A stretch of 54,039 nt of DNA from Clostridia bacterium (GCA_045545475.1 JAZQAZ010000038.1:1-54039); one strand, 5' to 3'; counted from the stretch's first letter, positions 1,438-48,875 are shown. Program-made: numbers and translations. The notes: generated from the sequence alone by a model not told the origin.

Positions 1438-1447
1438 GGTGATTTTG

Positions 1448-2122: not shown

Positions 2123-2196
2123 TAGGGTGTATACTTGTAGATAGAAACCGAGAAAGAGGTTTTATCACAGTGATTGGCATATAGAAAAATAAACTT

Positions 2197-2234
2197 AAAA
2201 AAGGCATTACCGTAATTAGCGGTAATGCCTTTTT
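2197..2234. terminator. Bidirectional intrinsic terminator
   Basis: AAAAAGGCATTACCG-taattag-CGGTAATGCCTTTTT between convergent genes. Confidence 0.85.
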
Positions 2235-2313
2235 AATCAGAAGTTGTTCTTTTAAGCTTGTAAACAAAGCAGATTTCTTTTTTATCTTTATTTAAGCGTT
2301 TTCGTCAAGTTCA

Positions 2314-3525
2314 TCACATCATCTTTTTAAGTCGCTCGTTTACTTCAATTAAAAACTCTTCTGTGCCAACCTTTTTCTTGTCAGGGAGATTTGATAAGAG
2401 ATATAAATCTCCTGTCATAACGCCTTCTTCGATGGTGTCTATTATTGCTTTTTCAAGCTTATCGGCAAAGGCCATAAGTTCGGGGAGATTATCAAGCTCA
2501 CCGCGCTTACGAAGTGCTCCTGTCCATGCAAAGAGTGTTGCAACGCTGTTTGTGGATGTTGCTTCACCCTTTAAGTGCTTGTAGTAGTGTCTCTGAACTG
2601 TGCCGTGTGCCGCTTCATATTCGTAAACGCCGTCAGGAGAAACCAAAACGGATGTCATCATAGCAAGGCTTCCGTAAGCTGTTGCAACCATGTCACTCAT
2701 AACGTCTCCGTCATAGTTTTTGCACGCCCAGATGTAGCCACCCTCGGAGCGGATAACACGAGCTACCGCATCATCTATAAGGGTGTAGAAATATTCAATG
2801 CCTGCTTCTTCGAACTTTTTCTTATATTCTGCTTCATAAATTTCAGCGAAAATGTCCTTGAAACGGTGGTCATACTTTTTGGAGATTGTATCCTTTGTGG
2901 CAAACCACAAATCCTTTTTCGTATCAAGGGCAAAGTTGAAGCAGCTTCTTGCAAAGCTCTTAATTGACTTGTCTGTGTTGTGCATGCCCTGGATAATACC
3001 GTCGGTATCCTTGAAGGAATGAATTTTTTCTCTTGTCTCATTTCCGTCTTTGTCAACGGTAACAAGATAAGCCTCACTTCCTTCCTTTACCTGCATTTCG
3101 GTGTTCTTATATACATCGCCGTAAGCGTGACGGGCGATTGTGATAGGCTTTGCCCAGGTGGGAATGTAAGGGGTGATGCCCTTAACGATTATAGGAGTAC
3201 GGAAAACAGTACCATCTAAAATTGCACGGATTGTGCCGTTGGGTGACTTCCACATTTCCTTTAAGTTGTATTCCGGCATTCTTGCAGCATTGGGTGTGAT
3301 TGTGGCACACTTAACGGCAACGCCATATTTCTTTGTAGCCTCGGCTGAGTCGATTGTAACCTGGTCGTTTGTCTCATTTCTGTAGGGAAGACCGAGGTCA
3401 TAATATTCTGACTTTAAGTCAACGTAGGGGTAAATTAAAATATCCTTTATCATCTGCCAGATGACTCTGGTCATTTCGTCTCCGTCCATTTCGACAAGTG
3501 GTGTTGTCATTTTAATTTTTGTCAT
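2314..3525 (-). CDS. icd: NADP-dependent isocitrate dehydrogenase (eukaryote-like type II)
   Basis: [48 protein letters not shown]. Confidence 0.97.
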
Positions 3526-3537
3526 AGTTTTGCCTCC

Positions 3538-5469: not shown

Positions 5470-5579
5470 AAAAATCAGTCCTTTCTTTATGTGAAAAACT
5501 TGATGAATATATAAATTTTATCATTTTATTTTATCATAAAAGTCGTTATGTGTCAATCTTTAAGACTTTTTATAAGTAT

Positions 5580-5610
5580 AAAAAAGGATTCTCCATTCGT
5601 GAGAATCCTT
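5580..5610 (-). terminator. Terminator downstream of rnhA
   Basis: AAGGATTCTC-cattcgt-GAGAATCCTT hairpin; the A-run on + gives a U-tail on -. Confidence 0.65.
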
Positions 5611-5625
5611 GGGTATTTTGCACTA

Positions 5626-6093
5626 TTATGAGTTTTCACTATACCCTTCGTCGTTAAAGGTAGGATTTGCAGAGCCCTGACGTGCCAAGTCGTCGCATCG
5701 TTCGTTTTCGGCGTGGCCGTCATGCCCTTTAACCCAATGGAACGTAACCTCGTGTGTATCAAGCAAGGGAAGAAGCCTTTCCCAAAGGTCGATGTTTAAT
5801 ACCTTGGATTTATCCGCCTTTCGCCAGCCTTTGGCCTGCCAGCTTGTAAGCCAGCCTTTTAAAATGGCATCTGTTAAATACTTGGAGTCACTGTAAAGGT
5901 CAACCTTGCAGGGTTCTTTTAAGGCCTCCAGCCCTTTTATTGCCGCAAGTAATTCCATACGGTTGTTGGTGGTAAGGCGATAGCCTTCATAAAGCTCCTT
6001 TACGTGATTTCCATACTTAAGAATAACACCGAAGCCACCGCTTCCGGGGTTGCCGGAACAGGCACCATCTGTATAAAGCTCGATTAATTTCAT
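5626..6093 (-). CDS. rnhA: Ribonuclease HI
   Basis: [37 protein letters not shown]. Confidence 0.97.
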
Positions 6094-6103
6094 AAAATCT
6101 TCC

Positions 6104-6673
6104 TTATCTGAAAACGATTTCGCCGTCTTTGATTTCTTCGATTATGGCGAGGGATTCTAAGCGTATTCCCATATCGCGGATTAATTTTCCGCCTTCCTGA
6201 AAGCCTTTTTCAATGGCGATTCCGATGCCTTCCAAGCTTGCTCCACTCTGCTTTACAATTTCAAGAAGGCCCTTTACAGCCTGTCCGTTTGCAAGGAAGT
6301 CATCCAAGATTAAAACATGATCAGATGCGGATAAATATTCTTTGGATACTCTTATCTGCTTTGATTCCTGCTTTGTATAGGAATAAACGTCTGCAGTATA
6401 GGCATCCTTACATATATTTTTCGGGTTACCTTTTTTAGCAAATACAACGGGAACGCCAAACTGCAAGCCAGCAACAGCGGCAATGGCAATGCCGGATGCC
6501 TCTGCGGTTAAAATCTTTGTTATTTTGTCGGAAGGGAATAATTTCCTGAATTCCTTTCCCATTTCATATAAAAGTGCGGTGTCAAGCTGATGGTTCAAAA
6601 ACATATCAACCTTGACAATTCCTCCGTCAAGAAGTAATGCGGTATCTCTGATTTTTTCCTTTAAAAGCTCCAT
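6104..6673 (-). CDS. xpt: Xanthine phosphoribosyltransferase
   Basis: [23 protein letters not shown]-binding [18 protein letters not shown]. Confidence 0.95.
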
Positions 6674-6739
6674 ATAACCCCATCCTTTTATGTAATTTAA
6701 TTAATTATAGCAAAAAATGTATAAAAATACAAGCCTATT

Positions 6740-7594
6740 TTAAATATAATCCTTTGGTTTTTTGCCGGTTACCTTGAAAAATGCCTTGTAGAAGTTTGAT
6801 GAGCTCTGAAAACCTGCTTCTTCTGCGGCGGAAAGTACCGACGATGCACCGCTTTTAAGTAAAGAAATCGCCTTTTCCACCCGCTTTATGGTGATATATT
6901 CAAAAGGTGTTACACCGTTGAACTTTTTAAATACGGTAGAAAAATAAGAGGGGGCAAGGTTCGATGTTTTTGCAATGTCCGAGAGCGTAAGATCTGTTGA
7001 CAGATTTTTATTAATGTAGTCCGTGGCGGCAGAAAGACTTTTTAATGTGTCACGGTTTACGGAATCGCTGCTCTCCTTTACATAGCCAAAGTCACGAAGC
7101 AAGGTTAAAAGAACGGAAAATAAAAGCATTTTTATTTTAAGTTCAAAGCCTTCCTTTTTTTCTGAAAACTCCTTTTCAATTTCCAAAATCGAAAGCCTTA
7201 TTTCTTCGGTCTTTTCGTTATCACGGGAGATTCTGTTTTCGAAAAGGTCACTTCGGTCTGTAAAAAGCTTAAGCAAGGGGAGATTTTCATACCCGCTTTC
7301 CCATATAAGCTTTGGCTCAAACTGGATACCTATTACGTCAAGAGGGGCAGAGTCCGATATTTCGGTTATGTAATGCACTTCATTTCCTGCAAAAAGAAAA
7401 ACATCACCAACGGAAAAAGGATAGCTTTTTCCGAGAACGGAATAAATTCCTTCTCCTGATACAAAAAGAGCGATTTCACATTCTGTGTGGGAATGCTCAC
7501 GGAATTCTCTTATGCCCGAGGGTGCCTTTGCGTGATAAAAGGATAAGATGTTTCTGCCTTTAAGGTCAGTTAAGCTGTGCTCTGAAAACCTCAT
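6740..7594 (-). CDS. AraC family transcriptional regulator (cupin + HTH)
   Basis: EHSHTECEI cupin; C-terminal APSYFSTVFKK...AGFQSSSNFYKAF; start placed at ATG 7594 after RBS GGAG. Confidence 0.92.
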   Translation of the reverse strand: MRFSEHSLTDLKGRNILSFYHAKAPSGIREFREHSHTECEIALFVSGEGIYSVLGKSYPFSVGDVFLFAGNEVHYITEISDSAPLDVIGIQFEPKLIWESGYENLPLLKLFTDRSDLFENRISRDNEKTEEIRLSILEIEKEFSEKKEGFELKIKMLLFSVLLTLLRDFGYVKESSDSVNRDTLKSLSAATDYINKNLSTDLTLSDIAKTSNLAPSYFSTVFKKFNGVTPFEYITIKRVEKAISLLKSGASSVLSAAEEAGFQSSSNFYKAFFKVTGKKPKDYI

Positions 7595-7706
7595 AACATG
7601 CTCCAATCTTAAAATAGTGGATAAAACAAGTAATATAACGGTTGAATTTACCGCATTTTTATTTTATAATAATAAAAAAATGATATATTGTCAAGGGGGC
7701 ATTGAA

Positions 7707-9071
7707 GTGAACATAAAAGAAATGGTGGAAGAAAACGTAAATACCTGTTCAAATCCTTCGGAGCTTAAAATAACGGACATCCGCGTTGCTAATATTACAG
7801 GTGCACCCAAACACTGTCCTTTAATAAAGATTTACACAAATCAGGGGCTTGTCGGCTACGGCGAAGTGAGAGATGCATCAAGCGCAACCTATGCACTTAT
7901 GCTTAAGAGCCGCCTTATCGGCGAAAATCCGTGCAATGTGGATAAGCTTTTCAGAAGAATAAAGCAGTTTGGCGGTCCTTCACGTCAGGGCGGTGGTGTA
8001 TCGGGAATTGAAATTGCCCTCTGGGACCTGGCGGGTAAAGCCTGGGGCGTTCCGCTGTGGCAGATGCTTGGCGGAAAGTTCCGCGACAAGGTAAGGGTTT
8101 ACGGCGATACTGACGTTGACGGAAAGCACACCGGCCGAGATATGGGTATGGCGATAAAAAAACGTATCGATATGGGCTTTTCCATTGTTAAGATGGACTT
8201 AGGCGTTGAGCTTTTATATGATGAGCCGGGATGCATAAACGCACCTCTCGGAATGATTGAGGACTTCAAGAAATACTCAATGAAGGCAATCCTTCACCAG
8301 AGCGGCTCTATTGATATGGATATGATGCTTGGCAAAAACTATGAGGTGTTCACGATCCCGCACTATGCAACGGGAATAAGAATTACCGAAAAAGGACTTG
8401 ACTACCTTGAAAATTATGTTAAAGAGGTAAGAGAAGTGGCTGGCTACGAAGTTCCTCTTGCAATTGACCACTTCGGTCACGTGGCACTTGAAGACTGCAT
8501 CAAGTTTGCAAAACGCCTTGAAAAGTATAACATCGCGTGGCTTGAGGATATCCAGCCCTGGCATCTTACAAATCACTATAAGAGAATTGCGGATGCCTGT
8601 AATGTGCCGCTTGCAACGGGCGAAGATATATACCTTGCCGAAAACTTCCGTTCGTTAATGGAAGCGGGTGCAGTATCCTTGGTACATCCCGACCTTCTTT
8701 CAATCGGCGGGGCTTTAGAGACCAAAAAGCTTGGTGATATGTGCGAAAAATACGGCGTTGGTATGGCAATTCATATGGCGGAAAGCCCCATTGCTATGAT
8801 GGCGGCAATCCATGTGGCGGCGGCAATTCAGAACGTATGGGCGGTTGAATTCCACTCCGTTGACATTCCCTGGTGGAACGACCTTGCAATCGGTATTGAA
8901 AATCCCTTATTCCATAACGGGTTTGTAAATGTGCCGGACACTCCGGGTCTCGGAATAGAACGCTTAAATGAAGAGCTTATAAAAGAGCATATGCATCCTA
9001 AATACCCCGAAGCCTGGGGAAGTACTGTAGAGTGGGATAAAGAATGGGCAAACGACAGAGAATGGAGCTGA
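7707..9071 (+). CDS. Mandelate racemase/muconate-lactonizing (enolase superfamily) enzyme, probable sugar-acid dehydratase
   Basis: SGIEIALWDLAGKAWGVPLWQMLGG, KMD, metal ligands in AIDH / WLED / TGED, HPD, AIH; probable GTG start at 7707 after RBS AAGGGGG (the ORF-track start at 7548 overlaps araC). Confidence 0.9.
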   Translation: MNIKEMVEENVNTCSNPSELKITDIRVANITGAPKHCPLIKIYTNQGLVGYGEVRDASSATYALMLKSRLIGENPCNVDKLFRRIKQFGGPSRQGGGVSGIEIALWDLAGKAWGVPLWQMLGGKFRDKVRVYGDTDVDGKHTGRDMGMAIKKRIDMGFSIVKMDLGVELLYDEPGCINAPLGMIEDFKKYSMKAILHQSGSIDMDMMLGKNYEVFTIPHYATGIRITEKGLDYLENYVKEVREVAGYEVPLAIDHFGHVALEDCIKFAKRLEKYNIAWLEDIQPWHLTNHYKRIADACNVPLATGEDIYLAENFRSLMEAGAVSLVHPDLLSIGGALETKKLGDMCEKYGVGMAIHMAESPIAMMAAIHVAAAIQNVWAVEFHSVDIPWWNDLAIGIENPLFHNGFVNVPDTPGLGIERLNEELIKEHMHPKYPEAWGSTVEWDKEWANDREWS

Positions 9072-9075
9072 TAGT

Positions 9076-9984
9076 ATGAATTTTAATGACAGAGAAGAAA
9101 TAATCGCTTTGACACCTTTGTGGAAGGGAGAACGCCTTCCCGACGGAAGGCCGAAGGTTGAAGAAAAATATCTTAAAGCACTTAAAAATCTCACCCTTGA
9201 AGAAGTGTGGAAGCCTATTTTTGTAAAGGGCTATGAAAGCCAGTTTGAAGGAAGGCTCAAAACCCTCCACACCGACGGAAGAAAATTAATCGGCCGTGCG
9301 GTTACGGCAATTTACTGTCCCTACCGTCCCGACCTTGATGAGTACACCAAGGAAATCGGAAAAAGAGAGGGAAGAAGCGGTACATACAATCAGTGGGTAA
9401 TCGACAATTTGATGGAACTGGACGTCCCTGTAATAGATATGTACGATAAAATCTATAAGGGCACATTCCTTGGCGGAAATTTAACCACCGCACTTAAGAA
9501 CAAAACGAAAAACGAAAACGGCGGTGCTGTTATCTGGGGCGGAATCCGTGATACGGAGCAGATGGAAAAGGTGGAAAACACTCAGGTTTACTATAGGGGA
9601 ATCGACCCTACGCCCATCCGTGACTTTATTATGACGGGCTATAACACGGTTACAAGAATCGGAAATGCAGTTTGCCTTCCCGGAGACGTGGTATTCGGTG
9701 CAGGCGGCGGTGTGCTTTTTATCCCATCGCACTTAGTCGCCGAGGTTGTTGGCGGTGCGGCAAAAACGCAGGTTAAGGATATGTTCGGCTTTGAAATGAT
9801 AAGTCAGAATAAATTCACCACTGCACAGATTGATAAAAACACCTGGACAAAGGAAATGCTTGACCTATTGATGGAATTTATAAAGACGGACGACCGTGCG
9901 TCAGCCTACCGTGACCTTGACTGGACAGAGGAATATTACCTTGCCGAGCACGGCGATCCGACGGATACCCAGTCGGCACTTTAA
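9076..9984 (+). CDS. RraA-like / HMG-CHA class II pyruvate aldolase family protein
   Basis: KLIGRAVT, LGGNL, VIWGGIRD, VCLPGDVVFG...GVLFIP. Confidence 0.85.
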   Translation: MNFNDREEIIALTPLWKGERLPDGRPKVEEKYLKALKNLTLEEVWKPIFVKGYESQFEGRLKTLHTDGRKLIGRAVTAIYCPYRPDLDEYTKEIGKREGRSGTYNQWVIDNLMELDVPVIDMYDKIYKGTFLGGNLTTALKNKTKNENGGAVIWGGIRDTEQMEKVENTQVYYRGIDPTPIRDFIMTGYNTVTRIGNAVCLPGDVVFGAGGGVLFIPSHLVAEVVGGAAKTQVKDMFGFEMISQNKFTTAQIDKNTWTKEMLDLLMEFIKTDDRASAYRDLDWTEEYYLAEHGDPTDTQSAL

Positions 9985-9995
9985 GGAGGCGTAGT

Positions 9996-10724
9996 ATGTT
10001 TAATCTTGAAGGAAAAAAGGCTCTTGTAACAGGCTCAACTCAAGGGATTGGTCTTGCTATTGCGAAAACCTTATCGGAATACGGGGCTACTGTTTTCATC
10101 CACTGCGGAAGCTCAGAGGAAAAAGCAAAAAATATTTCCTCGGAAATAAAAAACTCCCACCCGGTATGTGTAAACCTGCTTGAAAGAGATGCAGCAGAAA
10201 AGCTTTATGCCGCAACGGGAGACGTTGATATTGTAATCTTAAATGCCTCTGTTCAGATAAAGAAAAAGTGGGACGAAATTACTGAAGAGGATATGTATAA
10301 GCAGTTTGATATTAATGTGAAATCCACTTTCAAGCTTATACAGAAATATGTCCCCAAAATGAAGGAAAACTCATGGGGCAGAATCATTACGGTTGGCAGT
10401 GTTCAGCAGTATAAACCCCATAAGGAAATGGCGTTTTACGCAGCGACAAAATCCGCCAATATGAACATTGTAACAAATCTGGCATCACAGCTTGCTCCTT
10501 TCGGAATAACCGTAAACAACATTGCACCGGGTGTAATTGCAACACCGAGAAATGAAGATGCCTTAAACGATGAAAAATACAGAGATATCGTTTTATCAAA
10601 AATTCCTGCAGGATATGCGGGAGCATCTTATGACATAGCAGGCGGCGCACTCCTTCTTTCAAGCGACGCGGGACGTTACATCACAGGTACCGACATCATA
10701 ATCGACGGCGGTATGCATTTATAA
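9996..10724 (+). CDS. Short-chain dehydrogenase/reductase (gluconate 5-dehydrogenase-like)
   Basis: TGSTQGIG, YAATK, NNIAPG, IDGG. Confidence 0.92.
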   Translation: MFNLEGKKALVTGSTQGIGLAIAKTLSEYGATVFIHCGSSEEKAKNISSEIKNSHPVCVNLLERDAAEKLYAATGDVDIVILNASVQIKKKWDEITEEDMYKQFDINVKSTFKLIQKYVPKMKENSWGRIITVGSVQQYKPHKEMAFYAATKSANMNIVTNLASQLAPFGITVNNIAPGVIATPRNEDALNDEKYRDIVLSKIPAGYAGASYDIAGGALLLSSDAGRYITGTDIIIDGGMHL

Positions 10725-10725
10725 T

Positions 10726-10755
10726 AAAAAGGTTCGGATTTTCCGAACCTTTTTT
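10726..10755 (+). terminator. Intrinsic terminator
   Basis: AAAAAGGTTCGGA-ttt-TCCGAACCTTTTTT. Confidence 0.85.
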
Positions 10756-10809
10756 GCTGTAAAACTTAGTAAATCTAACATTTTTCAATAAAAGTATGGA
10801 AAAATTCTA

Positions 10810-10838
10810 TTGAATAGTGGATGTTGCAATGCTATAAT
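10810..10838 (+). promoter_or_regulatory. sigmaA promoter of the aminotransferase operon
   Basis: TTGAAT-17 bp-TATAAT with extended TG. Confidence 0.7.
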
Positions 10839-10898
10839 TACGATAGGAATAATGAATTAGTGTTTATTGGCGATTTAGCTTAGAAAGGACAGAGAAAT

Positions 10899-12437
10899 AT
10901 GATAAAGAATATATCCCGTTCCCTTAAAGATCTTTTAGGCTCTGACTATATGGAAGCCGTAATTTCGGTAGCCACTAAAATCTGCGGTATGGAAAAGGAA
11001 GAGGCGGAGTTTCTTGCAAATGAAAAGGTTGACTTTTTCCCCGATGATTATATAGCAAAAATGGATGATCTTGCGGAAAAAACAGGGGAAAAGCTTCTTA
11101 AAGGTTTTGAAAACAGCGAAAAAGGTGCACCCACCGATTCCTTCGGAAAGGCGGCACACCAAAATATGGCTCCCATCGGAGGCTTTGGCTGTACAAGAAT
11201 CGGTGAGGACGGAAAAGCGTACTTAATCGCAAAGAGCGAGCATTATCACGCCTCGCTGGGTCACAATTTCCCGGGCTATAAGCTTATCAATAACGCCAGG
11301 AAGCTTGGCATATTAAATGCAACCCATAACAATACAAGAGGATACATAACCCGTCTTGCAGAAAGAAGAATAATTGCGGCCGCAAACGGTGCAAAAAACG
11401 ATGCGGAAATTGATGCAATTCTTACATCCAAAGAGCCTCACGTGTTAAACCGCATAATCAACCTTGAAACGGGAAGTTTAGCTGGAGAGGCGGGTATTAA
11501 AATGATGCTGTCCCGCTTCTATAAGCTTGACGGAAGCTATGGCGATCCTCTTTATGACGGCAAAATCCCGGTATTTTTGGTTATGGAAGACAACAAGGAA
11601 GGCCTTGGTGCAAACTACCACGGAACAACAATTATGGCGCAGACCTTCCGCGGAATGTGGCCTACGTTCTATGAAAAGTGCGAAAAGAACGAGCTATACA
11701 AAGTTGTAAGTGTAAAGAAAAACGATATATCGGATTTTGAAGAAAAGATAAAAAAATACAACAGCGGAAGCTATAAGACAGCAGGGTTTATTCACGAGAT
11801 AATCCTTATGAACTATGCGGGAATCCGCCTCACAAAAGAGTATTTGGAGAAAGCTCACGAGCTTTGCAAAGCAACAGACACTCTTATTATGGTTGACGAA
11901 ATCCAGTCATGTATGTGGTATGATGGGATGTTTCTTTTCAGAAAGTACGGTCTAAAGCCTGATTTTGTAATGATAGGAAAGGGGTTCCCCGGCGGTGAAT
12001 ATTCCGCAAGTAAGCTTTTGACAACTGCACCTGCGGATAATTTGAATCAGTTCGGTGCTCTTGTCACCAACGGTCAGGAGGAACTTGCAAGCCTTTCATA
12101 TCTCATCACTATGGAATTTGCTTCAGCCAACGGAAAAGAAATTGATGAGATGGGCGAAAAAATTGAAAAAGGTATTCTTGAATTAAGTAAAAAATATCCT
12201 GAGCTTCTTCCGCCTCCCGAGGGGCTTGGCCATCTTTCGGCAATACATTTTAACAGTGTGGAAAAAGCGGCGGAATTTACAAAGATAATGAACGGTATGT
12301 GTGTTGATATAAGTGCACAGCTTTATAAACCGGACTGCCCGCCTGCGGTGCTTCTTAAGCCGCCGGTTATCACGGATGATAAAGTGCTTTCCGTACTTCT
12401 TGAAAAAATAAACGAAGGCTTGTTAAAGCTTAATTAA
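10899..12437 (+). CDS. Divergent class-III PLP-dependent aminotransferase
   Basis: SLGH, TGSLAGEAGIK, NYHGTT, VDEIQS, PDFVMIGKG (PLP lysine); N-terminal extension of about 100 aa. Confidence 0.85.
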   Translation: MIKNISRSLKDLLGSDYMEAVISVATKICGMEKEEAEFLANEKVDFFPDDYIAKMDDLAEKTGEKLLKGFENSEKGAPTDSFGKAAHQNMAPIGGFGCTRIGEDGKAYLIAKSEHYHASLGHNFPGYKLINNARKLGILNATHNNTRGYITRLAERRIIAAANGAKNDAEIDAILTSKEPHVLNRIINLETGSLAGEAGIKMMLSRFYKLDGSYGDPLYDGKIPVFLVMEDNKEGLGANYHGTTIMAQTFRGMWPTFYEKCEKNELYKVVSVKKNDISDFEEKIKKYNSGSYKTAGFIHEIILMNYAGIRLTKEYLEKAHELCKATDTLIMVDEIQSCMWYDGMFLFRKYGLKPDFVMIGKGFPGGEYSASKLLTTAPADNLNQFGALVTNGQEELASLSYLITMEFASANGKEIDEMGEKIEKGILELSKKYPELLPPPEGLGHLSAIHFNSVEKAAEFTKIMNGMCVDISAQLYKPDCPPAVLLKPPVITDDKVLSVLLEKINEGLLKLN

Positions 12438-12450
12438 AAGGAGGATTATT

Positions 12451-13818
12451 ATGAAAATAGGTTATTTGCCGCTTTATATAAAACTTTATGATGATATCGG
12501 TGCAAAGCGTGCCGTTATGCAGAAATTTTACGAGGATACGACCGAAATTTTCCGTGAAAAGGGACTTACGGTCGTTACATCGGATTTTTGCCGTATAGAA
12601 TCCGAATTTAAGGAAACTGTTAAAAGATTTGAGGATGAAAAGGTTGATGCCATTGTTACCTGGCATGCGGCATATTCTCCTTCTCTCGAGTCAATTGAGG
12701 TTCTTGCAAATACAAATCTTCCGATTATTGTGTTTGACTCAACGCCAACCAAGGTGTTTGATCAGGATGCAATACTCGAAGGTGCAGTAAGCTGGAACCA
12801 CGGCATTCACGGCGTTATGGATATGTGCAGTATGCTTAAAAGATATGGAAAGCCCTATGCAATTGCAGCAGGTCACTATCTTGACGGTAAGTGCATTGAC
12901 CGTGTTATAGGCTTTGTTAAAAGTGCAGTTGCGGCAAGAAAGCTTAAGGGAATGAAGGTGGGTCTTGTGGGCGGAGCCTTCAAAGGTATGGGCGATTTTG
13001 CGGTTGACCCTGACGAGCTTAAGGAACGCTTCGGAATAACCGTTGAAAATGTGGATAAGACATACCTTGCAGGGTTAGTTTCGGATATAACAGAAGAGGA
13101 AATTGAAGAAGAGCTTGCAAACGACCGTAAGATGTATGACTTTGCCGATAATATTGTTACTGAGGAATATAGGCCCTACACGGCTTCCTGTCTTGCTCTT
13201 CGTAAGGCTGTAAAGGAAAAAGAGTATGATGCATTTTCCGTAAACTTTTTGGATGTTGAAGGACTTGGAACAATGCCCTTTACAGAAGCCTGCAAATCTA
13301 TGGAAAAGGGCATAGGCTATGCAGGTGAGGGCGATGCCCTTACGGCATCATTTACAGGGGCGCTTCTTCAAGGATACCCCGAAACAAGCTTTGTTGAAAT
13401 TTTCTGCCCGGTATGGACGGAGAATAAACTGTTCTTAAGCCATATGGGCGAAATGAACTACCGCATAATTGAAGGAAAGCCTTACCTTGCAAGAACAGGC
13501 TCAGCATATGTCAAGGGCGTTATGCCTTATGCAGGATATTCCTGCATGAAGGCGGGTAAAGGCGTCTATGTAAATATCAGCCGTGACAAGGATGACTATC
13601 AGATGCTTATAACTCCCTGCGAAATGGTTTGTGAGGAAGAAGCTAAAAAGAAAACTGTTATGCGTGGATGGATGAAGCCTGAAAGTGATATAGGAACATT
13701 TCTTGAAAACCTCAGCAAAAACGGTGCCACACACCACAGCTCCTTCGTTTACGGTGCAACCGTGGAAGAGCTTGAATTTTTCGCAAAGCTTCTTTCTATA
13801 AAGACTGTTGTAATATAA
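12451..13818 (+). CDS. L-fucose/L-arabinose isomerase family protein
   Basis: NHGIHG, GYAGEGD, FLSHMGE, GATHHS motifs as in AraA/FucI-like isomerases. Confidence 0.8.
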   Translation: MKIGYLPLYIKLYDDIGAKRAVMQKFYEDTTEIFREKGLTVVTSDFCRIESEFKETVKRFEDEKVDAIVTWHAAYSPSLESIEVLANTNLPIIVFDSTPTKVFDQDAILEGAVSWNHGIHGVMDMCSMLKRYGKPYAIAAGHYLDGKCIDRVIGFVKSAVAARKLKGMKVGLVGGAFKGMGDFAVDPDELKERFGITVENVDKTYLAGLVSDITEEEIEEELANDRKMYDFADNIVTEEYRPYTASCLALRKAVKEKEYDAFSVNFLDVEGLGTMPFTEACKSMEKGIGYAGEGDALTASFTGALLQGYPETSFVEIFCPVWTENKLFLSHMGEMNYRIIEGKPYLARTGSAYVKGVMPYAGYSCMKAGKGVYVNISRDKDDYQMLITPCEMVCEEEAKKKTVMRGWMKPESDIGTFLENLSKNGATHHSSFVYGATVEELEFFAKLLSIKTVVI

Positions 13819-13829
13819 GGGGCATTGTT

Positions 13830-15179
13830 ATGAAATATCTTATTGGTCTTGATATAGGAACATCCGCCGTAAAAGGTGTTCTTATGACAGCGGACGGTGT
13901 TGTTACAAAAACGGCATCTTCTCCTTTTATATATGAAAAACTCGAAAACGGCGGCGTGGAAATAGAGGCAGATAAATATGTCGAAGCTTGTTTTTGGGCA
14001 ATAAAGGAGCTTGCGAACGATGTTGACGGCGAAATATGCGGAATTTCGGCGTCTTCCGCCAGCGGTAATCTTTTGGTTTTAGATAAAGATAATAAGCCTG
14101 TAACTCCCATATACAACTGGCAGGATAAAAGAGTTACAACGGAGTCAGAGGAAATATTGGGCGATATAGATAAAGATGCGCTTTATAAAAAAATCGGCTG
14201 GCCATTTTCCGGAAAAACCTTTCCTTTGGCACTTTTATGCTATGTCAAAAAGCACTTTCCTGAAAAAATAGTATCTTGTGGTAAAGTTTGTATGAGCACA
14301 GAGTATTTATACTACCTTTTAACGGGAAAGTGGGGGATAAGCTCATCTGCCGGCACTCCGTTTTTCCTTATTGACCAGAACACGGGTAAATATATCCCCG
14401 AGCTTCTTGATGCAATCGGTATAACGGAAGATAAATTGCCGCCCATTATGCCTTGCGGAAGCGTGGTAGGATGCGTCAGTGAAATATCATCAAAAAAGTG
14501 CGGACTTCCGGCAGGCACTCCTGTGGTATTGGGAAGCTTTGACCATCCTTCTGCTGCAAGGGGAGCGGGAGTGTTTAACGAAGGAGAAATGCTTCTTTCC
14601 TGCGGTACCTCCTGGGTTGGCTTTTTCCCGATAAATGACCGTGAAAAGGCGGCGTCCGCCAAAATTCTTATCGACCCATTTTTGTCTGAAAAAGGCGGAG
14701 CGTGGGGGACAATGGTTTCGGTTTCATCCCTTTCAAATTATATTGATTTATATATAAAAAGATATATTGACGATTCCGATAACCGCTTCGACATACTGAC
14801 AAATCTTGCGAGAAAAAGTATTCACGGTGCAAACGGACTTTCAATCTGCCTTACGGATGAGCCGGATGATGAAAAGATAAAATCATTTCCAAGGGAAGAC
14901 ATCGCAAGGGCAATTATGGAAGGTGCGGTTAATCTCCTTAAGGCTAAGCTTGACATATTAAAGGGAATAGGAATAAGTCCGAAAACAGCTGTAATGGTTG
15001 GCGGGCCTTCCAAAAACCCACTGTATCTTGAAATTATAGAAGAAATCTGCGGCATAAAGGCATTAGTCCGTCACGGCGTAAATGCCGGAGCGGTGGGTGC
15101 TGCTATGCTTGCAGGAATCGGGGCAGGATTATTTAAAGACGAAAATGATGCAAATAGAATTTTTAATGAAAGAGGGTAA
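13830..15179 (+). CDS. FGGY family carbohydrate kinase (xylulokinase-like)
   Basis: IGLDIGTSAVK, YNWQDKR, GSFDHPSAARG, SCGTS, RAIMEG, VGGPS, GAVGAAMLAG. Confidence 0.9.
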   Translation: MKYLIGLDIGTSAVKGVLMTADGVVTKTASSPFIYEKLENGGVEIEADKYVEACFWAIKELANDVDGEICGISASSASGNLLVLDKDNKPVTPIYNWQDKRVTTESEEILGDIDKDALYKKIGWPFSGKTFPLALLCYVKKHFPEKIVSCGKVCMSTEYLYYLLTGKWGISSSAGTPFFLIDQNTGKYIPELLDAIGITEDKLPPIMPCGSVVGCVSEISSKKCGLPAGTPVVLGSFDHPSAARGAGVFNEGEMLLSCGTSWVGFFPINDREKAASAKILIDPFLSEKGGAWGTMVSVSSLSNYIDLYIKRYIDDSDNRFDILTNLARKSIHGANGLSICLTDEPDDEKIKSFPREDIARAIMEGAVNLLKAKLDILKGIGISPKTAVMVGGPSKNPLYLEIIEEICGIKALVRHGVNAGAVGAAMLAGIGAGLFKDENDANRIFNERG

Positions 15180-15184
15180 TTTAT

Positions 15185-16204
15185 ATGTTTAATATGCAGG
15201 TTACTGATTATGACAGATGGGTGTATGAAAACGAAATAAAGGATTTTCTGCCTAAAGAATTTATAGATTTTCATATTCATTCATATAAAAATACATTCAA
15301 GCCGGCGGGGAGTCGTAACGGAGGCTCTGCCTGGACAAGGCTGGTTGCCGACGAAATGACCACAGAGCAGATGCTGGATTGTTTCCGTCAGTATTTCCCC
15401 GAAAACAAGGTTACGCCCTTGATTTTCGGAAGCTGCTTAAGAGACTTTAAAGAAACAAACGATTATGTGAGGGAAGAAGGCAGGAAATACGGCTTTCCTA
15501 CATTGTACAGAAGCTCCTATGATATGGATTTAAACGAGCTTGAAAAGAATGTTAATGAGGGTGGCTTTTTAGGACTTAAGCCTTATCTTTCTTATTGTCC
15601 GTCATACATTCCGTCAAAGGAAGTAAGAATTTTCGACTTTTTACCAGAAGAACAGCTTAAGCTTGCGGATAAAAACGGCTGGATAATAATGCTTCATATT
15701 GGTCGTGACGGAAGACTTAAAGACCCTGTAAACCTTGGTCAGCTTATGGAAATAGAAGAAAAATATCCCAATCTTAAATTAATTGTGGCACATATCGGAA
15801 GAGCATATTCAAAAGAAGATATAGGAAATGCCTTTGAAATTTTGAAAAATACAAAAAATATGTACTTTGACTTTACTGCAAATATGTGCGACGATGCAAT
15901 CCGTGAGTGTATTAAGGCTGTGGGACCGAAGCGCCTTATGTACGGCTCTGACCTACCCATTGCAATAATGCGAATGTACAGAATTACGGAAAACGGAGTT
16001 TATTACAATGTGGTGCCCCGCGGTCTTTACGGATGTGTTGAGGGTGAGCCTCATATGCGTGAAACCGACGAGGAAAACGTAACCATTATGATGTATGAGC
16101 AGATTCGTGCAATGAAAAGGGTTGCCGAAGAACTTAAGCTTACAAGAGAAGATATAGAAGATATTTTCTGCGGCAATGCAAAGAGACTTCTCGGAATGAA
16201 ATAA
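15185..16204 (+). CDS. Amidohydrolase_2 family metal-dependent hydrolase
   Basis: IDFHIH, MLHIG, VAHIG, MYGSDLP, NAKRLL. Confidence 0.85.
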   Translation: MFNMQVTDYDRWVYENEIKDFLPKEFIDFHIHSYKNTFKPAGSRNGGSAWTRLVADEMTTEQMLDCFRQYFPENKVTPLIFGSCLRDFKETNDYVREEGRKYGFPTLYRSSYDMDLNELEKNVNEGGFLGLKPYLSYCPSYIPSKEVRIFDFLPEEQLKLADKNGWIIMLHIGRDGRLKDPVNLGQLMEIEEKYPNLKLIVAHIGRAYSKEDIGNAFEILKNTKNMYFDFTANMCDDAIRECIKAVGPKRLMYGSDLPIAIMRMYRITENGVYYNVVPRGLYGCVEGEPHMRETDEENVTIMMYEQIRAMKRVAEELKLTREDIEDIFCGNAKRLLGMK

Positions 16205-16235
16205 AAAATAGGGAGAAAATATTTCTCCCTATTTT
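16203..16235 (+). terminator. Intrinsic terminator
   Basis: AAAATAGGGAGAAA-ata-TTTCTCCCTATTTT. Confidence 0.8.
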
Positions 16236-16379
16236 CTTTATTAAATCTTTTCAAAATGTCAAAATAAATCAATCAAAGAGGCATATGAAAATCATAGACT
16301 TTTATAAGATAGTGTGATACACTAATAAAAATTACAGTCTGATTTGTTATAGTGAAAACAAATATTAAGGAGTGTTTCT

Positions 16380-17987
16380 ATGAAATTTAAAAGCATACCT
16401 GTGGCTAAAAATGCCGTTTACGGAAACGAGTGGGAATTTTCCCTTCCGCTTAATATTTCACTTGACAATTACAAAGAAAAGATAAATGTGCTGACAGAAG
16501 CATTATTCGGAAGCTATGCCTTAACAGGCGATGAAGGAACCATAAAAGCGAGCTTTGATGAAAAACTGAAAGTAAAAGGCGAATACGGCCTTAAAATATC
16601 GTCAGGAAAAGCACATATAACCTACGGCGACTATGAGGGCTTAAGAAATGCTTTGGCACATATAAGTAATATCTTAAAAATAAGAGAAGGTAAGGCATAT
16701 CTTCCTGAGTGCGATTTTTCCGATAAGCCAAGGTTTACACACCGCGGAGTTATGATAGACCTTGCAAGGGGAATTCCGGACAAGGAACGCTTTCTGGATG
16801 ATTTGGCACTTATGGCAAAGGCAAAAATCAACATTTTGCATCTTCATCTTTCGGATAATAAGGGCTTTGCAATTAAACTTTCTGTGCTTAAAGAAGAAAT
16901 GTTTATAGAAAACGCCTATAGTATTTCTGAAATAAAAGAGCTGATTTCCCTTTGCGACAGCCTCGGGCTTGAAATAATCCCCGAATTTGACTGTCCAGGT
17001 CACAGCGGAAAGCTTGTTGAATGCTATCCTTATCTTACCTGTGAAACCGACCTTTCAGAGCAAAGTAAATGGACACCCTGCATAGGTGAAGGAAGCGTTT
17101 TTAAGATATATGAGAATATAATCGATGAGCTTTGTGAAATTTTTCATTATGAATATTTCCACATCGGAGGCGACGAGCTTTCATTTGACGATTTGGGACT
17201 TGCGGCAAAATGCCATTGGGCAGAATGCAGAAAGTGCAACGCCTTTATGAAGGATAACGGCATAGCCGATGTGCAGGATTTGTACTATTATGTAATGACA
17301 AAGGCTTATGAAATGGTTAAAAAGAACGGCAAAAAGGTTATTATGTGGAACGATCAGATTGACACCGAAAGAGAGATTAAGCTGCCTTCTGACATTATAC
17401 TTCATTTCTGGAGAGTTGCCGCACCAAAGCGAGGTCCTCATATAAATATATCAATGAACAGCCAGTTAAAGACGGGAAGGAAAATGATAAACTCCCATTA
17501 TCCCGAGGCGTATGTTGATATTGATTATACTCACGAAAGAGCAAATAAGGAAGATACCGTAGGAAACTGGAAAATAGATGAGCGCCCCTATAGCGATGAA
17601 GAATTGAAAGAGAATATCATTGGAAGTGAAATGTGTGCCTGGGAATACGGCAACGAAAAGGATTATCCCCATTACAGCTATACTCTTCCTTCGGAAATTT
17701 TAATTTACGGCGATAAAATGTGGAATAACGAGTGTTTCAGCATTGATGAAGATTATGAAAAGGCACTTACGAAAATTCTTTTAGGCTTTACAAGCCCTGA
17801 TGACTTAAATGTATTTGCCTGCCTCGGAGGTGCTATTCTTTCCCGGAAAGATGAAAAGTGCATTCCTTCAAAAATCACAAAGGATAAGGCTTTTCTTATT
17901 GAAACTAAAAACGCTCTTTCAAAAATTCCGGGACGCCTTTCGAAGATTTACACAGAGTGCATAGTAGAAGCACTTGAGAAAATATGA
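16380..17987 (+). CDS. GH20 beta-N-acetylhexosaminidase, no signal peptide
   Basis: DKPRFTHRGVMIDLAR, LHLHLSD, IIPEFDCPGH, catalytic HIGGDE, IMWND. Confidence 0.9.
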   Translation: MKFKSIPVAKNAVYGNEWEFSLPLNISLDNYKEKINVLTEALFGSYALTGDEGTIKASFDEKLKVKGEYGLKISSGKAHITYGDYEGLRNALAHISNILKIREGKAYLPECDFSDKPRFTHRGVMIDLARGIPDKERFLDDLALMAKAKINILHLHLSDNKGFAIKLSVLKEEMFIENAYSISEIKELISLCDSLGLEIIPEFDCPGHSGKLVECYPYLTCETDLSEQSKWTPCIGEGSVFKIYENIIDELCEIFHYEYFHIGGDELSFDDLGLAAKCHWAECRKCNAFMKDNGIADVQDLYYYVMTKAYEMVKKNGKKVIMWNDQIDTEREIKLPSDIILHFWRVAAPKRGPHINISMNSQLKTGRKMINSHYPEAYVDIDYTHERANKEDTVGNWKIDERPYSDEELKENIIGSEMCAWEYGNEKDYPHYSYTLPSEILIYGDKMWNNECFSIDEDYEKALTKILLGFTSPDDLNVFACLGGAILSRKDEKCIPSKITKDKAFLIETKNALSKIPGRLSKIYTECIVEALEKI

Positions 17988-18028
17988 AAAAACGCTGTCT
18001 TCTGATGAAGGCAGCGCTTGTTTTTTTT
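17988..18028 (+). terminator. Intrinsic terminator
   Basis: CGCTGTCTTC-tgat-GAAGGCAGCG followed by a T-rich tail. Confidence 0.7.
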
Positions 18029-18082
18029 AGATAAATGTGGTATACTATTTACATAGACTAATGGAGAAGAGAGGATTTTACA

Positions 18083-19624
18083 ATGAAGCTTGCAAGTATA
18101 TTTACAGACCATATGGTACTTCAGAGGGATATGCCTATACGCGTTTTCGGAACGGGCGAAGGAAAGGTAAAAGTGACGTTTCTTGGCGAAACGGCGGAAG
18201 GCACATCTGAAAACGGAAAATGGCGTGTAAAACTTTCGCCAAAACCTTTTGGCGGCCCCTATGAAATGAAAATAGACCTTGGCGGAGAAGAACTTGTTTT
18301 AAGAGATATTTTAATCGGGGACGTGTTTTTAGCTTCCGGGCAGTCAAATATGGAGATGCCGCTTTTCGCAACGGAATCGGGGTTTTCGGATGCCGTAAAC
18401 TGCGATAATGCCTCCATCCGCTATTTCACCGTGCCAAGAAGATACAAAAAGGGCGTTGATACATACGGATACCACTTTGCGGATGTCTATAACTGCGATA
18501 CGCCATGGCAGATAAAAACGGAGGAATCAGCGCTTAATTTTACTGCAATAGGCCACTACTTTGCAGAGTATCTCCAAAGGGAAGTAAACGTGCCCATAGG
18601 CATCATTTCCTGCAACTGGGGAGGACGCAGAATTGAAGCCTTTATAGAAAAATCATACTTTTACGGAGTGCCGTCCTTAGAGGGGCAGATGAAAGCGTTT
18701 ACTGAATTTACATCTTCCCTTGATATGGAAGAGTATGAAAAAGACTTTGAAAAATTCACAAAAGATGTGGAAGAATATATAAAAGAAAAACACAAGGGTA
18801 AGCTTGATGATACAAGGCAACTTGGAGTTTACGCTGCGGCACCTAAGGCAAATCTGGATGATTTTCCGCAGAAACTAAAAGGCCCTTACGACTCGGTATC
18901 GCCTTCGGTTTTGTGGGAAAGTATGTTTTCTGAAATAGTTCCCTTTGGCGTCCGGGCAATGCTCTGGTATCAGGGAGAGTCCAACGGATATGACAGGGAC
19001 TACCTTGAAAAATATCTTACCTTCTTAAAATGCATAAGAGAACAGTTTGAATGTGATATGGATGTGTATGCCGTGGAGCTTGCACCCTACATAGGAAAGC
19101 ACGCTGACTTAAAGGATATATCTGACCTTAAGTTTATAACCGGAAACAACTGGGCATTTTTAAGGGAAGATCAGCAAAAGGCAACTTTAATGGGTGATAA
19201 AAACTACCTTGTCACGTCGGCAGAGCAAGGGGATATATTTGAAATTCACCCCAAACGCAAAAAGGAAATTGCCCGCCGTCTTTCCTTAAAGGCTATGAAA
19301 CACACCTACGGAATGGATATTTTAGCAGATCAGCCTATATTCAAATCGGTGGAATTCAAAGACGGAAAGGCTTATATAACACTTTATAATGCAGACGGCT
19401 TATACGGACAGACCGGCGGTGTGGAAATGCTTATCGCAGGGAAAGATAAGGTGCTTAAGAGAGGTTTTGTAAATATAACTGAGGATAACCGTTTAGAAGT
19501 ATATTCTCCCGAAGTGCCGGAACCAGAAATTGTGCGCTACGGCTTTGGAATGTACTATTTCGGAAAGCATATCTATAATGGTGCAGGACTTCCGCTTGCA
19601 CCCTTCAGAACAGATAAGGACTGA
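18083..19624 (+). CDS. Sialate O-acetylesterase family (SGNH) protein
   Basis: FTDHMVLQRD, ASGQSNM, WGG, WYQGESN, EIHP, GLPLAPFRTD; no signal peptide. Confidence 0.9.
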   Translation: MKLASIFTDHMVLQRDMPIRVFGTGEGKVKVTFLGETAEGTSENGKWRVKLSPKPFGGPYEMKIDLGGEELVLRDILIGDVFLASGQSNMEMPLFATESGFSDAVNCDNASIRYFTVPRRYKKGVDTYGYHFADVYNCDTPWQIKTEESALNFTAIGHYFAEYLQREVNVPIGIISCNWGGRRIEAFIEKSYFYGVPSLEGQMKAFTEFTSSLDMEEYEKDFEKFTKDVEEYIKEKHKGKLDDTRQLGVYAAAPKANLDDFPQKLKGPYDSVSPSVLWESMFSEIVPFGVRAMLWYQGESNGYDRDYLEKYLTFLKCIREQFECDMDVYAVELAPYIGKHADLKDISDLKFITGNNWAFLREDQQKATLMGDKNYLVTSAEQGDIFEIHPKRKKEIARRLSLKAMKHTYGMDILADQPIFKSVEFKDGKAYITLYNADGLYGQTGGVEMLIAGKDKVLKRGFVNITEDNRLEVYSPEVPEPEIVRYGFGMYYFGKHIYNGAGLPLAPFRTDKD

Positions 19625-21129: not shown

Positions 21130-22788
21130 TCAGTCAACGATTTCAACACCCGTAGGCTTGTTGATTTTAACATCAACTGTGCCGTCAGCACATCTTTTTG
21201 CATCAATGCTGATTACACCGTAGGGTGTGGGGTAGGTACCGTGGATGTAGTTCAGCTTTGTGCCAAGATTAGGCTTTACGCTTACCTTCTTACAGCCGGG
21301 AGCGAGTACCTTAACACCTAAAATGTATTCCTGGATATAAGCCGCAGGACCTGATGCCCAGCCGTGACATAAGCTGTGACGGAAGCCCTTGTAGCAGTAT
21401 GCACCGTGGTCGCCGTGAATGTCGTTTTCATCGGGAGCTACAAATTCATCAATTCTCTTTGCACCCTCGGTCCACTCCAAGTTAAAGTCTTCAAAGAATG
21501 TTGTTGCACCAAGCTCAATCATCTTGCCCCAGAACTTGTTCATAAGGTCGATTGTGCCGTCAACGTCACCTGCTTCGCCTCTTGCCTTAAGAACGTAATA
21601 GCCAAGGAAGGTGGATACGTTATGTAAGGGATCAACTGCCAGGATGTTCTTGTTTACATCTTCATAAGTGCTGATTCCTGCAAGTGCCTGAAGAGCCGCT
21701 GCGGCCTTGCAGTTACCGGGATCGGGAGCGTTTGCCATAATAAGATTCTTATAGCCTTCGCACTTTGAAGCCATTTCTTCATCCTTGTACTCTTTTGCAA
21801 TGTTACTTGCAGCATCAAGTGCCATGGTGAAGATTGCGGCAACGCCTGCCTTCTGTCCCTGTGGGTCTGTTGATGTGGGCCAGTCGATGAAGTTTTTGTC
21901 TATTGCAATTGTACCGTCTTCGTTGATTACAGAGAAGAGGTTGGCAAGAGTTGCATAGAGATAGTCCTTCTGAGCGAAGAGATAATCGTAGTTACCGTTC
22001 TGCATATACCAATCCCAGTGAATCTTGATCCACCAGAGGGTGTAGGAGGGAATGTTGTTCATCCACTTGTCGGGAGCGAAGCATTCCTTTGTTAAATCCA
22101 GGCTCTTGGGAACGCAGTCGTCATAGCCGAATACTCTTTGAATTGTGGAGGTCTCTGGATGCATATCGCCGATCCATACAAGACGGTCACGCTTGATACC
22201 GTCCCAGAGGTAGTTTTGCATATTTAAGTGAACTGTGTAAACAGCGGTTTCGAAAACTTCGTTAAGCATAGCATCGTCGGATGTAAATGTACCCTTGTAT
22301 TCAATATCTTCATAAATGAAAGCGGCACGGATAACGTTTAAGTGAACGAATCCCTTGGGGCAATCAATTCTTACGAAACGATAGCCTGTCTGTCCGATTT
22401 CGATGGAACCCATCATAGAAACGGGAAGCTCCAGATCACGCTGAGCGTGGTTGTTTGTAGCGTTCTTTTCGCCGTAAAGCTCGGTCATACATTCCATAAC
22501 GGATTCACCGAAGCGGATGTGAAGTCTTCCTTCCTTCTGAACTTCACACTCACAGCCGTGAGCAATAACGAGTAATCCGCCGTGGATTTCATAGCCGAAG
22601 TCAAGTAAAATAGAACCGCCTTCCTTGATTGTGCAGACAGGGCCGATGTTTAAGGGAGCCTGAAGAGGCTTATCCATCATAAGGGCCTCAACATTGTCAA
22701 TGTCGCCGTTTGTCCATACAATCTTCTTTGGCATCAAGTATCTTTTTGCTCTGGTATCGCGGATACCTTCTGTGAAAACGTTTCTCAT
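21130..22788 (-). CDS. GH78 alpha-L-rhamnosidase (short cytoplasmic form)
   Basis: LLDFGYEIHG, GYRFVRI, WDGIKRDRLVWIGD, FIDW, GATTFFEDF, SLCHGWASGP, PTPYGVI. Confidence 0.9.
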   Translation of the reverse strand: MRNVFTEGIRDTRAKRYLMPKKIVWTNGDIDNVEALMMDKPLQAPLNIGPVCTIKEGGSILLDFGYEIHGGLLVIAHGCECEVQKEGRLHIRFGESVMECMTELYGEKNATNNHAQRDLELPVSMMGSIEIGQTGYRFVRIDCPKGFVHLNVIRAAFIYEDIEYKGTFTSDDAMLNEVFETAVYTVHLNMQNYLWDGIKRDRLVWIGDMHPETSTIQRVFGYDDCVPKSLDLTKECFAPDKWMNNIPSYTLWWIKIHWDWYMQNGNYDYLFAQKDYLYATLANLFSVINEDGTIAIDKNFIDWPTSTDPQGQKAGVAAIFTMALDAASNIAKEYKDEEMASKCEGYKNLIMANAPDPGNCKAAAALQALAGISTYEDVNKNILAVDPLHNVSTFLGYYVLKARGEAGDVDGTIDLMNKFWGKMIELGATTFFEDFNLEWTEGAKRIDEFVAPDENDIHGDHGAYCYKGFRHSLCHGWASGPAAYIQEYILGVKVLAPGCKKVSVKPNLGTKLNYIHGTYPTPYGVISIDAKRCADGTVDVKINKPTGVEIVD

Positions 22789-47835: not shown

Positions 47836-47850
47836 TAAATCACTTCCTTC

Positions 47851-47967
47851 AAAAGTATCCGATTTTATACGAAAAGTATCTTATATCGTATTGTATTTTG
47901 AAATAAGATACTTTATAATTATATCATAAAGATACTTTATGTCAATAAGGCATTGTAAAAAAGTATC
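47851..47967. promoter_or_regulatory. Divergent overlapping promoters with five AAAGTATC boxes
   Basis: AAAAGTATC at 47851, 47872 and 47959; inverted copies GATACTTT at 47907 and 47931; + promoter TTGTAT-17-TATAAT (47891-47919); - promoter TTGACA-16-TATAAT with extended TG (47945-47918). Confidence 0.75.
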
Positions 47968-47987
47968 ATAAATTGGGAGGTTTTTTT

Positions 47988-48812: not shown

Positions 48813-48875
48813 ATTTTTCTTGTATTTGCAAGGAAAATGATGTAAAATAAAGTAAAAAAAGAGGAGGAATTAATA

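Follow-up and report, generated by a model that had tools for sequence, protein, structure and literature searches.

In the operons for L-arabinose and L-fucose, an isomerase (AraA or FucI) and a kinase of the FGGY family (AraB or FucK) form the entry route of the sugar into metabolism. Where a sugar carries an amino group, known catabolism removes the nitrogen by NagB-type deaminases or ammonia-lyases that act on phosphorylated or acid sugars. Oxidoreductase-aminotransferase pairs are known from biosynthesis, NtdC/NtdA in that of kanosamine and GabT1/GutB1 in that of 1-deoxynojirimycin, and these routes include a phosphatase; note that NtdA is a member of the DegT family and not of class III. 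Pyruvate-dependent amine transaminases, such as taurine:pyruvate aminotransferase, are paired with an alanine dehydrogenase (Ald). Here we analyze a four-gene operon in a stretch of 54,039 nucleotides from a gut Clostridia bacterium (GCA_045545475.1, JAZQAZ010000038.1:1-54039, the whole of which we call the window). It encodes an aminotransferase-like protein (AT3), an aldose-ketose isomerase (ISO), a sugar kinase (KIN) and a protein of the amidohydrolase family PF04909 (AMH). In the best-supported reading, to which we assign a probability of roughly 55%, the operon serves the catabolism of a carbohydrate that bears a free amine, and this catabolism begins with a transamination. The four genes are the following, in window coordinates:

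10899 to 12437, plus strand: AT3, 512 residues, a divergent class-III-fold enzyme of the pyridoxal phosphate (PLP) type, with a conserved N-terminal extension of about 90 residues
12451 to 13818, plus strand: ISO, 455 residues, an aldose-ketose isomerase of the AraA/FucI family
13830 to 15179, plus strand: KIN, 449 residues, a sugar kinase of the FGGY family, closest to xylulokinase and below that family's cut-off
15185 to 16204, plus strand: AMH, 339 residues, a metal-dependent TIM-barrel enzyme of PF04909 (Amidohydro_2)

An earlier note on this DNA, made from the sequence alone, had described four co-oriented genes with gaps of 13, 11 and 5 nucleotides, and the coordinates of the open reading frames match this exactly. 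None of the four proteins reaches the cut-off of any NCBIfam equivalog. ISO contains the N-terminal, central and C-terminal domains of AraA as defined in Pfam and aligns over its full length with AraA structures, but its score against the AraA equivalog NF002795 of NCBIfam is 117 bits at a cut-off of 622, and the model for sulfoquinovose isomerase is matched with 54.8 bits at a cut-off of 700. In the AraA of E. coli we take E306, E333, H350 and H450, positions counted in the alignment, to be the metal-binding and catalytic residues. As evidenced by the alignment to this enzyme (PDB 4f2d), ISO retains all four, two glutamates and two histidines. KIN matches both domains of its family above the Pfam cut-offs (FGGY_N with 129 bits, FGGY_C with 46.9 bits), and here again the equivalogs are not reached, with 187 bits against 380 for xylulokinase (TIGR01312) and 98.5 against 471 for fuculokinase. 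The two proteins work as a pair like AraA-AraB or FucI-FucK but, with scores far below the equivalog cut-offs, belong to neither. The operon also lacks AraD and FucA, and its PLP enzyme and its PF04909 protein are without counterpart in the arabinose and fucose operons.

AT3 is assigned to PF00202 by a weak match (60.6 bits, E value 1.4e-16, Pfam gathering cut-off 30.5) that spans residues 169-505 only and begins at position 73 of the profile. It is not an ordinary ArgD, GabT or RocD, given that the NCBIfam equivalogs yield at most 57 bits against cut-offs of at least 372. Among the best 25 of the 59 matched families, TIGR01885 ranks first with 56.7 bits at a cut-off of 378, and the equivalog for putrescine aminotransferase likewise stays far below its cut-off. 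The N-terminal extension that the earlier note had read is real, as the Pfam match starts only at residue 169, residues 1-60 are modelled as confident helices and the segment is conserved throughout the family. Profile alignments with solved acetylornithine, ornithine and putrescine aminotransferases agree with that note's reading of the motifs as well. The cofactor motifs are kept, DEIQ aligning with DEVQ and IGKG with the catalytic-lysine motif GKA, but the substrate-side motifs diverge, HEIILMNYAG aligning with EPIQGEAG and VTNGQE with STFGGN. K361 in IGKG occupies the position of the lysine that forms the Schiff base with PLP, and D333 in DEIQ that of the DEVQ aspartate, which pairs with the pyridine nitrogen of the cofactor; the glutamine of DEIQ is kept too.

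The AlphaFold model of AT3 (mean predicted local distance difference test score, pLDDT, of 83.6) is matched about equally well by SapH and by acetylornithine and putrescine aminotransferases, with 17-20% identity to the solved structures, and the fold search found no characterised enzyme near it. The top structural hit, with an E value of 1.6e-19, is SapH (PDB 7qzj), which acts as an aminotransferase in the biosynthesis of pseudouridimycin, but at 20% identity and with a score no better than those of the acetylornithine and putrescine enzymes it is uninformative on specificity. The AT3 family itself is compact and strongly conserved, with a length of about 512 residues. A search of 1.84 billion representative proteins with AT3 yielded 59 at an E value of 1e-30 or below, many of them fragments, and the nearest other full-length branches show 27-32% identity. 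Twelve aligned members, 38-80% identical to AT3, share the N-terminal extension and invariant motifs such as THNNTRG, NYHGTT and GALVTNGQEEL. One of these twelve, P0128 (534 residues, 38% identity), has an asparagine at the position of the PLP lysine, so that it is an inactive paralogue unless the sequence is in error. For P0150, a representative of a sister branch with 32% identity, no close solved relative was found, and searches of the ESM Atlas with AT3 and AMH returned generic cluster names only.

Evidence for a functional unit comes from the recurrence of the gene set. The collection searched for AT3 holds one genome for each of 185,579 species; AT3-like genes are present at 536 places in it and, in addition, in at least 393 metagenome stretches, and where the records name the carriers, most are uncultured Clostridia that come from the guts of animals and humans. 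Linkage in the species genomes was counted for the best 80 of the 536 loci (57-99% identity to AT3), 35 of which have full flanks, meaning at least 6 kb on both sides of AT3. The metagenome counts refer to 80 loci of a branch that is 44% identical to AT3, with 34-71% G+C and most contigs only a few kb long. In the genomes, KIN is found near AT3 in 56 of the 80 loci (30 of the 35 with full flanks), ISO in 47 (27 with full flanks), AMH in 47 (28 with full flanks) and all three together in 41 (27 with full flanks). Every one of the 35 loci with full flanks holds at least one of ISO, KIN, AMH and an oxidoreductase, GFOc, to which we return below. In the metagenome loci KIN is present in 31 cases, ISO in 26, a DeoR regulator in 19 and AMH in 16, and the complete trio of ISO, KIN and AMH in 12.

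The four genes thus lie together within 10 kb in unrelated lineages, and the co-occurrence of AT3 homologues with isomerase, kinase and PF04909 protein, which the earlier note had set as a check on its proposal, extends across distant lineages. Gene orders vary, with AT3-ISO-KIN-AMH, KIN-AMH-ISO-AT3 and AT3-KIN-AMH-ISO all represented, and this shuffling between lineages argues for selection on the set and not for shared ancestry of a single arrangement. As the genome of the window, 2.74 Mb in size, contains one ISO-like gene and three AMH-like matches, an adjacency by chance is very unlikely.

The commonest neighbour of AT3 is GFOc, a Gfo/Idh/MocA oxidoreductase of 379 residues that is found in 49 of the 80 genome loci, in 25 of the 35 with full flanks and in 21 of the 80 metagenome loci, usually immediately adjoining. 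In the genome of the window its orthologue (61% identity) is located on another contig. A second, weakly GH109-like group of Gfo/Idh/MocA proteins is present in 31 of the 80 genome loci and includes the product of the window gene at 205-1437; the oxidoreductase cluster of this gene stands beside AT3 in 28 of 83 clustered sequences (82 loci and the window). Regulators of the DeoR and AraC types are found in 20 and 13 of the 80 genome loci, respectively, and the importers near AT3 comprise a solute-binding protein, an ABC ATPase, an MFS carrier and a sodium:solute symporter. A DeoC/LacD aldolase occurs in three metagenome loci, and in two loci (L145 and L169) an alanine dehydrogenase follows immediately 3' of AT3. 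The latter arrangement, a class-III-fold enzyme and then Ald, resembles that of the pyruvate-dependent amine transaminases; it differs from them in that it is confined to few loci, that AT3 is distant from the solved class-III enzymes and without an arginine aligned to theirs, and that its neighbours are sugar enzymes.

Regulators of a type that senses sugar phosphates, importers, the isomerase-kinase route and the occasional aldolase or alanine dehydrogenase all speak for catabolism in which AT3 removes the nitrogen. To this extent the scheme of the earlier note, a catabolic route with transamination first, is upheld. Its assumption that the transamination delivers a ready-made aldose is called into question by the frequent Gfo/Idh/MocA partner, which suggests that the product of AT3 is often a keto sugar that is reduced or otherwise adjusted before isomerisation.

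A second operon of similar architecture, not orthologous to that of the window, is present in the same genome (L099, G000:C23:21000-40999, genes 800-12974). It starts with a divergent DeoR gene, a canonical GabT-like class-III aminotransferase (456 residues), the GFOc orthologue and a FucI-like isomerase (452 residues), and continues with an FGGY kinase (488 residues), a 500-residue protein without Pfam family, MatE, a PF04909 protein (262 residues), PHP and ROK. The presence of a canonical aminotransferase in the slot taken by AT3 in the window operon argues that the chemistry of this slot is transamination. The exporter and the phosphatase could indicate a biosynthetic role of this second operon, and a biosynthetic reading fits it better than it fits the operon of the window.

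The pairing of AT3 with an oxidoreductase mirrors amino-sugar biosynthesis in reverse, as in NtdC/NtdA and GabT1/GutB1 the dehydrogenase likewise works beside the aminotransferase on the carbonyl or amine of a sugar. This raises the question whether the AT3 cluster might itself be biosynthetic and convert a keto sugar into an amino sugar or azasugar, as in the routes to kanosamine and 1-deoxynojirimycin. The resemblance to these pathways and the MatE exporter and PHP phosphatase of the second operon would be in line with such a role. We nevertheless consider it improbable, as the context of AT3 is one of import, regulation, isomerase and kinase: AT3-type loci carry importers, DeoR and AraC regulators of sugar type, aldolase and alanine dehydrogenase, they are devoid of phosphatase and exporter, and an isomerase with a kinase constitutes an entry into metabolism and not an exit.

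AMH is a clear member of PF04909 (74.7 bits, Pfam cut-off 26.4) that matches no NCBIfam family. Residues H30, H32, K132, H171, H203 and D256 are invariant in 28 sequences, and H30, H32, H171, H203 and D256 are presumably the metal ligands, in the order HxH, H, H, D of the amidohydrolase superfamily. The structural model is confident (pLDDT 94.2). Its closest folds, at template modelling (TM) scores of 0.49-0.57, are the hydratase LigJ, gamma-resorcylate and related decarboxylases, the lactonase LigI and uncharacterised proteins, and the fold search revealed no characterised enzyme close to AMH. The sequence alone found no match among the PDB sequences at an E value of 0.01 or below; with a profile, weak matches appeared, the best of them (7.9e-07) to uncharacterised hydrolases. 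Sugar lactonases of PF04909, LigJ and gamma-resorcylate decarboxylase have the fold and the HxH, H, H, D residues in common with AMH, but only at the TM scores given above and at 12-18% identity.

AMH had been proposed to act as a deacylase on an N-acyl amino sugar, and this assignment is not supported, as nothing in the sequence or structure results gives backing to N-deacylation. The scheme of which it was a part, in which AMH would deacylate an amino-deoxy sugar or a 1-amino-1-deoxyalditol, AT3 would yield the aldose directly, and isomerase and kinase would follow with no redox step, does agree with the window operon, with its close relatives L017 and L018 and with several environmental loci, all of which consist of the four genes only and have no Gfo/Idh/MocA gene. 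However, by structure AMH lies nearest to hydratases, decarboxylases and lactonases and not to deacylases, GFOc is too regular a companion of AT3, and 1-amino-1-deoxyalditols are to our knowledge not abundant natural compounds, so that we hold this exact sequence of events to be unlikely.

A second copy of AMH, with 90% protein and 84% DNA identity, is located in the same genome (L180, G000:C1:11000-21743, 9137-10156, minus strand). No AT3, ISO or KIN gene stands beside it, with the contig ending 588 nucleotides past the gene. The copy is convergent with a GH109-like Gfo/Idh/MocA gene (7558-8847) and comes after three large open reading frames of 692-818 residues.

In the catabolic pathway that we propose, AT3 would move the amino group of the substrate to a keto acid, probably pyruvate, leaving a carbonyl sugar. 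Where needed, a Gfo/Idh/MocA oxidoreductase would adjust the new carbonyl to give an ordinary aldose, which ISO would turn into the ketose and KIN would then phosphorylate, and the ketose phosphate would reach central metabolism either directly or via an aldolase. AMH would carry out a further step, be it hydrolysis of a lactone or ring, hydration, decarboxylation or deacylation. We infer for this scheme in which direction the pathway runs, how its steps are ordered, which acceptor takes the amino group and what kind of substrate is used. Like the NagA/NagB route it would take the nitrogen off an amino sugar before glycolysis, but NagB deaminates a sugar phosphate and, unlike AT3, does so without PLP. 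Four NagA genes above the family cut-off, together with NagB, are present in the genome of the window. The AT3 operon is therefore not a replacement of that route and probably serves a different amine, which makes glucosamine and N-acetylglucosamine unlikely substrates. By family, the enzymes would suit amino-deoxy sugars from bacterial glycans, aminoalditols, or sugars whose amino group is terminal (omega); the aminoalditols and rare amino sugars that the earlier note had in mind are guesses that the analysis does not support specifically.

Several observations weigh against this reading. Neither a transporter nor a dedicated regulator is encoded in the window operon, no Gfo/Idh/MocA gene adjoins it, and the aldolase and the alanine dehydrogenase, which speak for catabolism and for transamination, are confined to a handful of loci. 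The improbability of a chance adjacency was judged from copy numbers in this one genome. No reaction can be assigned to AMH from its family or structure matches. Of the 35 genome loci with full flanks, 8 have an incomplete trio and contain TIM-barrel, GH4 or 3-keto-disaccharide-hydrolase-like genes instead, so that the AT3 family is not tied to one fixed pathway. Finally, the arginine of the TIRFLPPL or TIRIEPPL motif in the solved enzymes aligns with the nearly invariant L485 of AT3, although at the low identity concerned this alignment is uncertain. In canonical class-III transaminases this arginine holds the co-substrate, a keto or amino acid, by its carboxylate, and AT3 may therefore not be a standard transaminase.

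This last point leads to an alternative in which the operon still serves sugar catabolism, but AT3 is a class-III-fold PLP enzyme that does not transaminate, that is an aminomutase, similar to glutamate-1-semialdehyde aminomutase, an epimerase or racemase, or an eliminating lyase that acts on a sugar derivative. Besides the leucine in place of the arginine, the rewritten substrate-side motifs would be in line with such an activity, and aminomutases, racemases and a phospho-lyase are indeed among the class-III matches of AT3. Yet a true transamination agrees with the alanine dehydrogenase that directly follows AT3 in two loci, a canonical transaminase fills the same slot in the second operon, and a lysine, K487, that is invariant in the alignment of 12 family members and located two residues past L485, could take over the role of the missing arginine. 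We regard this alternative as unlikely, though it deserves to be kept in mind.

Variant loci show other combinations of partners. In some of them xylose-isomerase-like TIM barrels and other PF04909 proteins replace ISO and AMH, and others hold a FucI-like isomerase, GH4 and a weakly 3-keto-disaccharide-hydrolase-like protein, the latter with a match of 26.9 bits at a cut-off of 26.8. One might take these loci, in which AT3 directly adjoins GH4, the hydrolase-like protein, TIM barrels or Gfo/Idh/MocA genes, to place AT3 in an oxidative pathway for sugars or glycosides of the 3-keto type, in which it would interconvert a keto sugar, produced by Gfo/Idh/MocA, GH4 or GH109-like enzymes, and the matching amino sugar. 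We find little reason to favor this, as the partners in question are a minority among the 80 genome loci (GH4 in 4, the DUF1080-like protein in 3, TIM barrels in 10) and none of them is part of the window operon. Two metagenome loci, L165 and L100, combine a divergent AT3 with a canonical, AT23-like class-III aminotransferase, and L165 also contains both types of isomerase; the pairing could mean that a single substrate carries two amino groups or that two related ones are used.

Catabolism begun by transamination also permits a wider and more tentative proposal, for which we see a real chance though less than an even one. The AT3 family may represent a new branch of class-III PLP enzymes that deaminates free amino sugars, neither phosphorylated nor nucleotide-linked, and together with ISO, KIN, AMH and often a Gfo/Idh/MocA reductase it might constitute the first amino-sugar catabolic route that is based on transamination, with a wide distribution among gut Clostridia and environmental bacteria. 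Its targets might be rare amino or amino-deoxy sugars of bacterial surface glycans. If true, carbohydrate metabolism would gain a new element in this transaminase-led route for free sugars. With the substrate assigned, many genes that at present bear only the generic labels aminotransferase, isomerase, kinase or amidohydrolase could be annotated, and it would become apparent on which amine-bearing glycan component these bacteria feed. The earlier note knew of no described pathway with this gene set, and we, too, found no published description in searches of open-access main text; the passages covered in PMC8121099 and PMC11968277 do not describe the set. AT3 may also serve as a natural sugar-accepting transaminase; according to the abstract of PMC12418926, transaminases had to be engineered to accept 2-keto sugars.

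Further features of the window relate to the boundaries of the operon and to a possible partner:

10810 to 10838, plus strand: sigma-70-like promoter candidate, TTGAAT and TATAAT spaced by 17 nucleotides, with TG before the -10 hexamer and 10 of 12 consensus positions
about 10726 to 10755, plus strand: terminator-like hairpin with a run of T's that closes the upstream SDR gene, read by eye and absent from the list of the hairpin scan
16205 to 16235, plus strand: intrinsic-terminator-like hairpin of 14 pairs followed by T's that ends the operon, from the hairpin scan
205 to 1437, plus strand: weakly GH109-like Gfo/Idh/MocA gene, 410 residues, a possible partner only, 9.5 kb from the operon

The terminator that had been reported after the operon is thus found as a hairpin with T's. 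The promoter reported at 10810-10838 has a good match to the consensus, but promoter-like sites are not enriched in the region, with 28 observed against 30.2 expected from shuffles, and the site is consistent with a plausible promoter, not a demonstrated one, on its consensus match alone.

The hairpin at about 10726-10755 sets the four genes apart from an upstream operon (6740-10724), in which an AraC gene on the minus strand faces genes for a sugar-acid dehydratase of the enolase superfamily, an RraA-like protein and an SDR. The dehydratase is galactonate-dehydratase-like but below the cut-offs, the SDR is similar to KduD or glucose dehydrogenase, and the RraA-like protein is possibly an aldolase. 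A role of these MR_MLE, RraA and SDR genes in the AT3 pathway was considered and rejected, as the terminator lies between them and they are linked to AT3 in only one of the 80 loci, that of the nearest relative L015.

Within the genus of the window the operon is patchy, a near-identical AT3 being found in 4 of 12 genomes, this one included. Among 27 genomes that represent other families of the class, only 2 contain an AT3 orthologue. In L017 and L018, both close relatives, the same four genes stand amid different neighbours, and with this patchy spread the operon behaves as a portable cassette. Near-identical DNA is found in animal gut metagenomes from 8 studies. In one run, X14, a single contig joins position 10724 to 16256, with 31 other letters replacing the whole operon and a shorter side of 21 letters, a weak hint of an allele that lacks the four genes. 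A gut metatranscriptome, X20, contains eight short contigs, 90-99% alike, that fall on ISO, KIN, AMH and the 3' end of AT3; seven of these measure 93-348 nucleotides and the eighth is a 40-nucleotide piece of a contig of 2459 nucleotides. As an RNA library can contain DNA and a contig is no proof of a transcript, they permit no conclusion on the expression of the operon.

Genes for the degradation of glycans are found around the operon at 16380-19624, 21130-22788, 24281-26104 and 27289-29589. The set comprises a GH20, a SASA-type esterase, a rhamnosidase-like six-hairpin protein, a second GH20 with a C-terminal GH20C domain, and a GH89-like NAGLU. Further downstream, at 47026-51747, the window contains an AraC-regulated cluster of sugar type with two xylose-isomerase-like TIM barrels, a Gfo/Idh/MocA protein and an amidohydrolase of the creatininase family.

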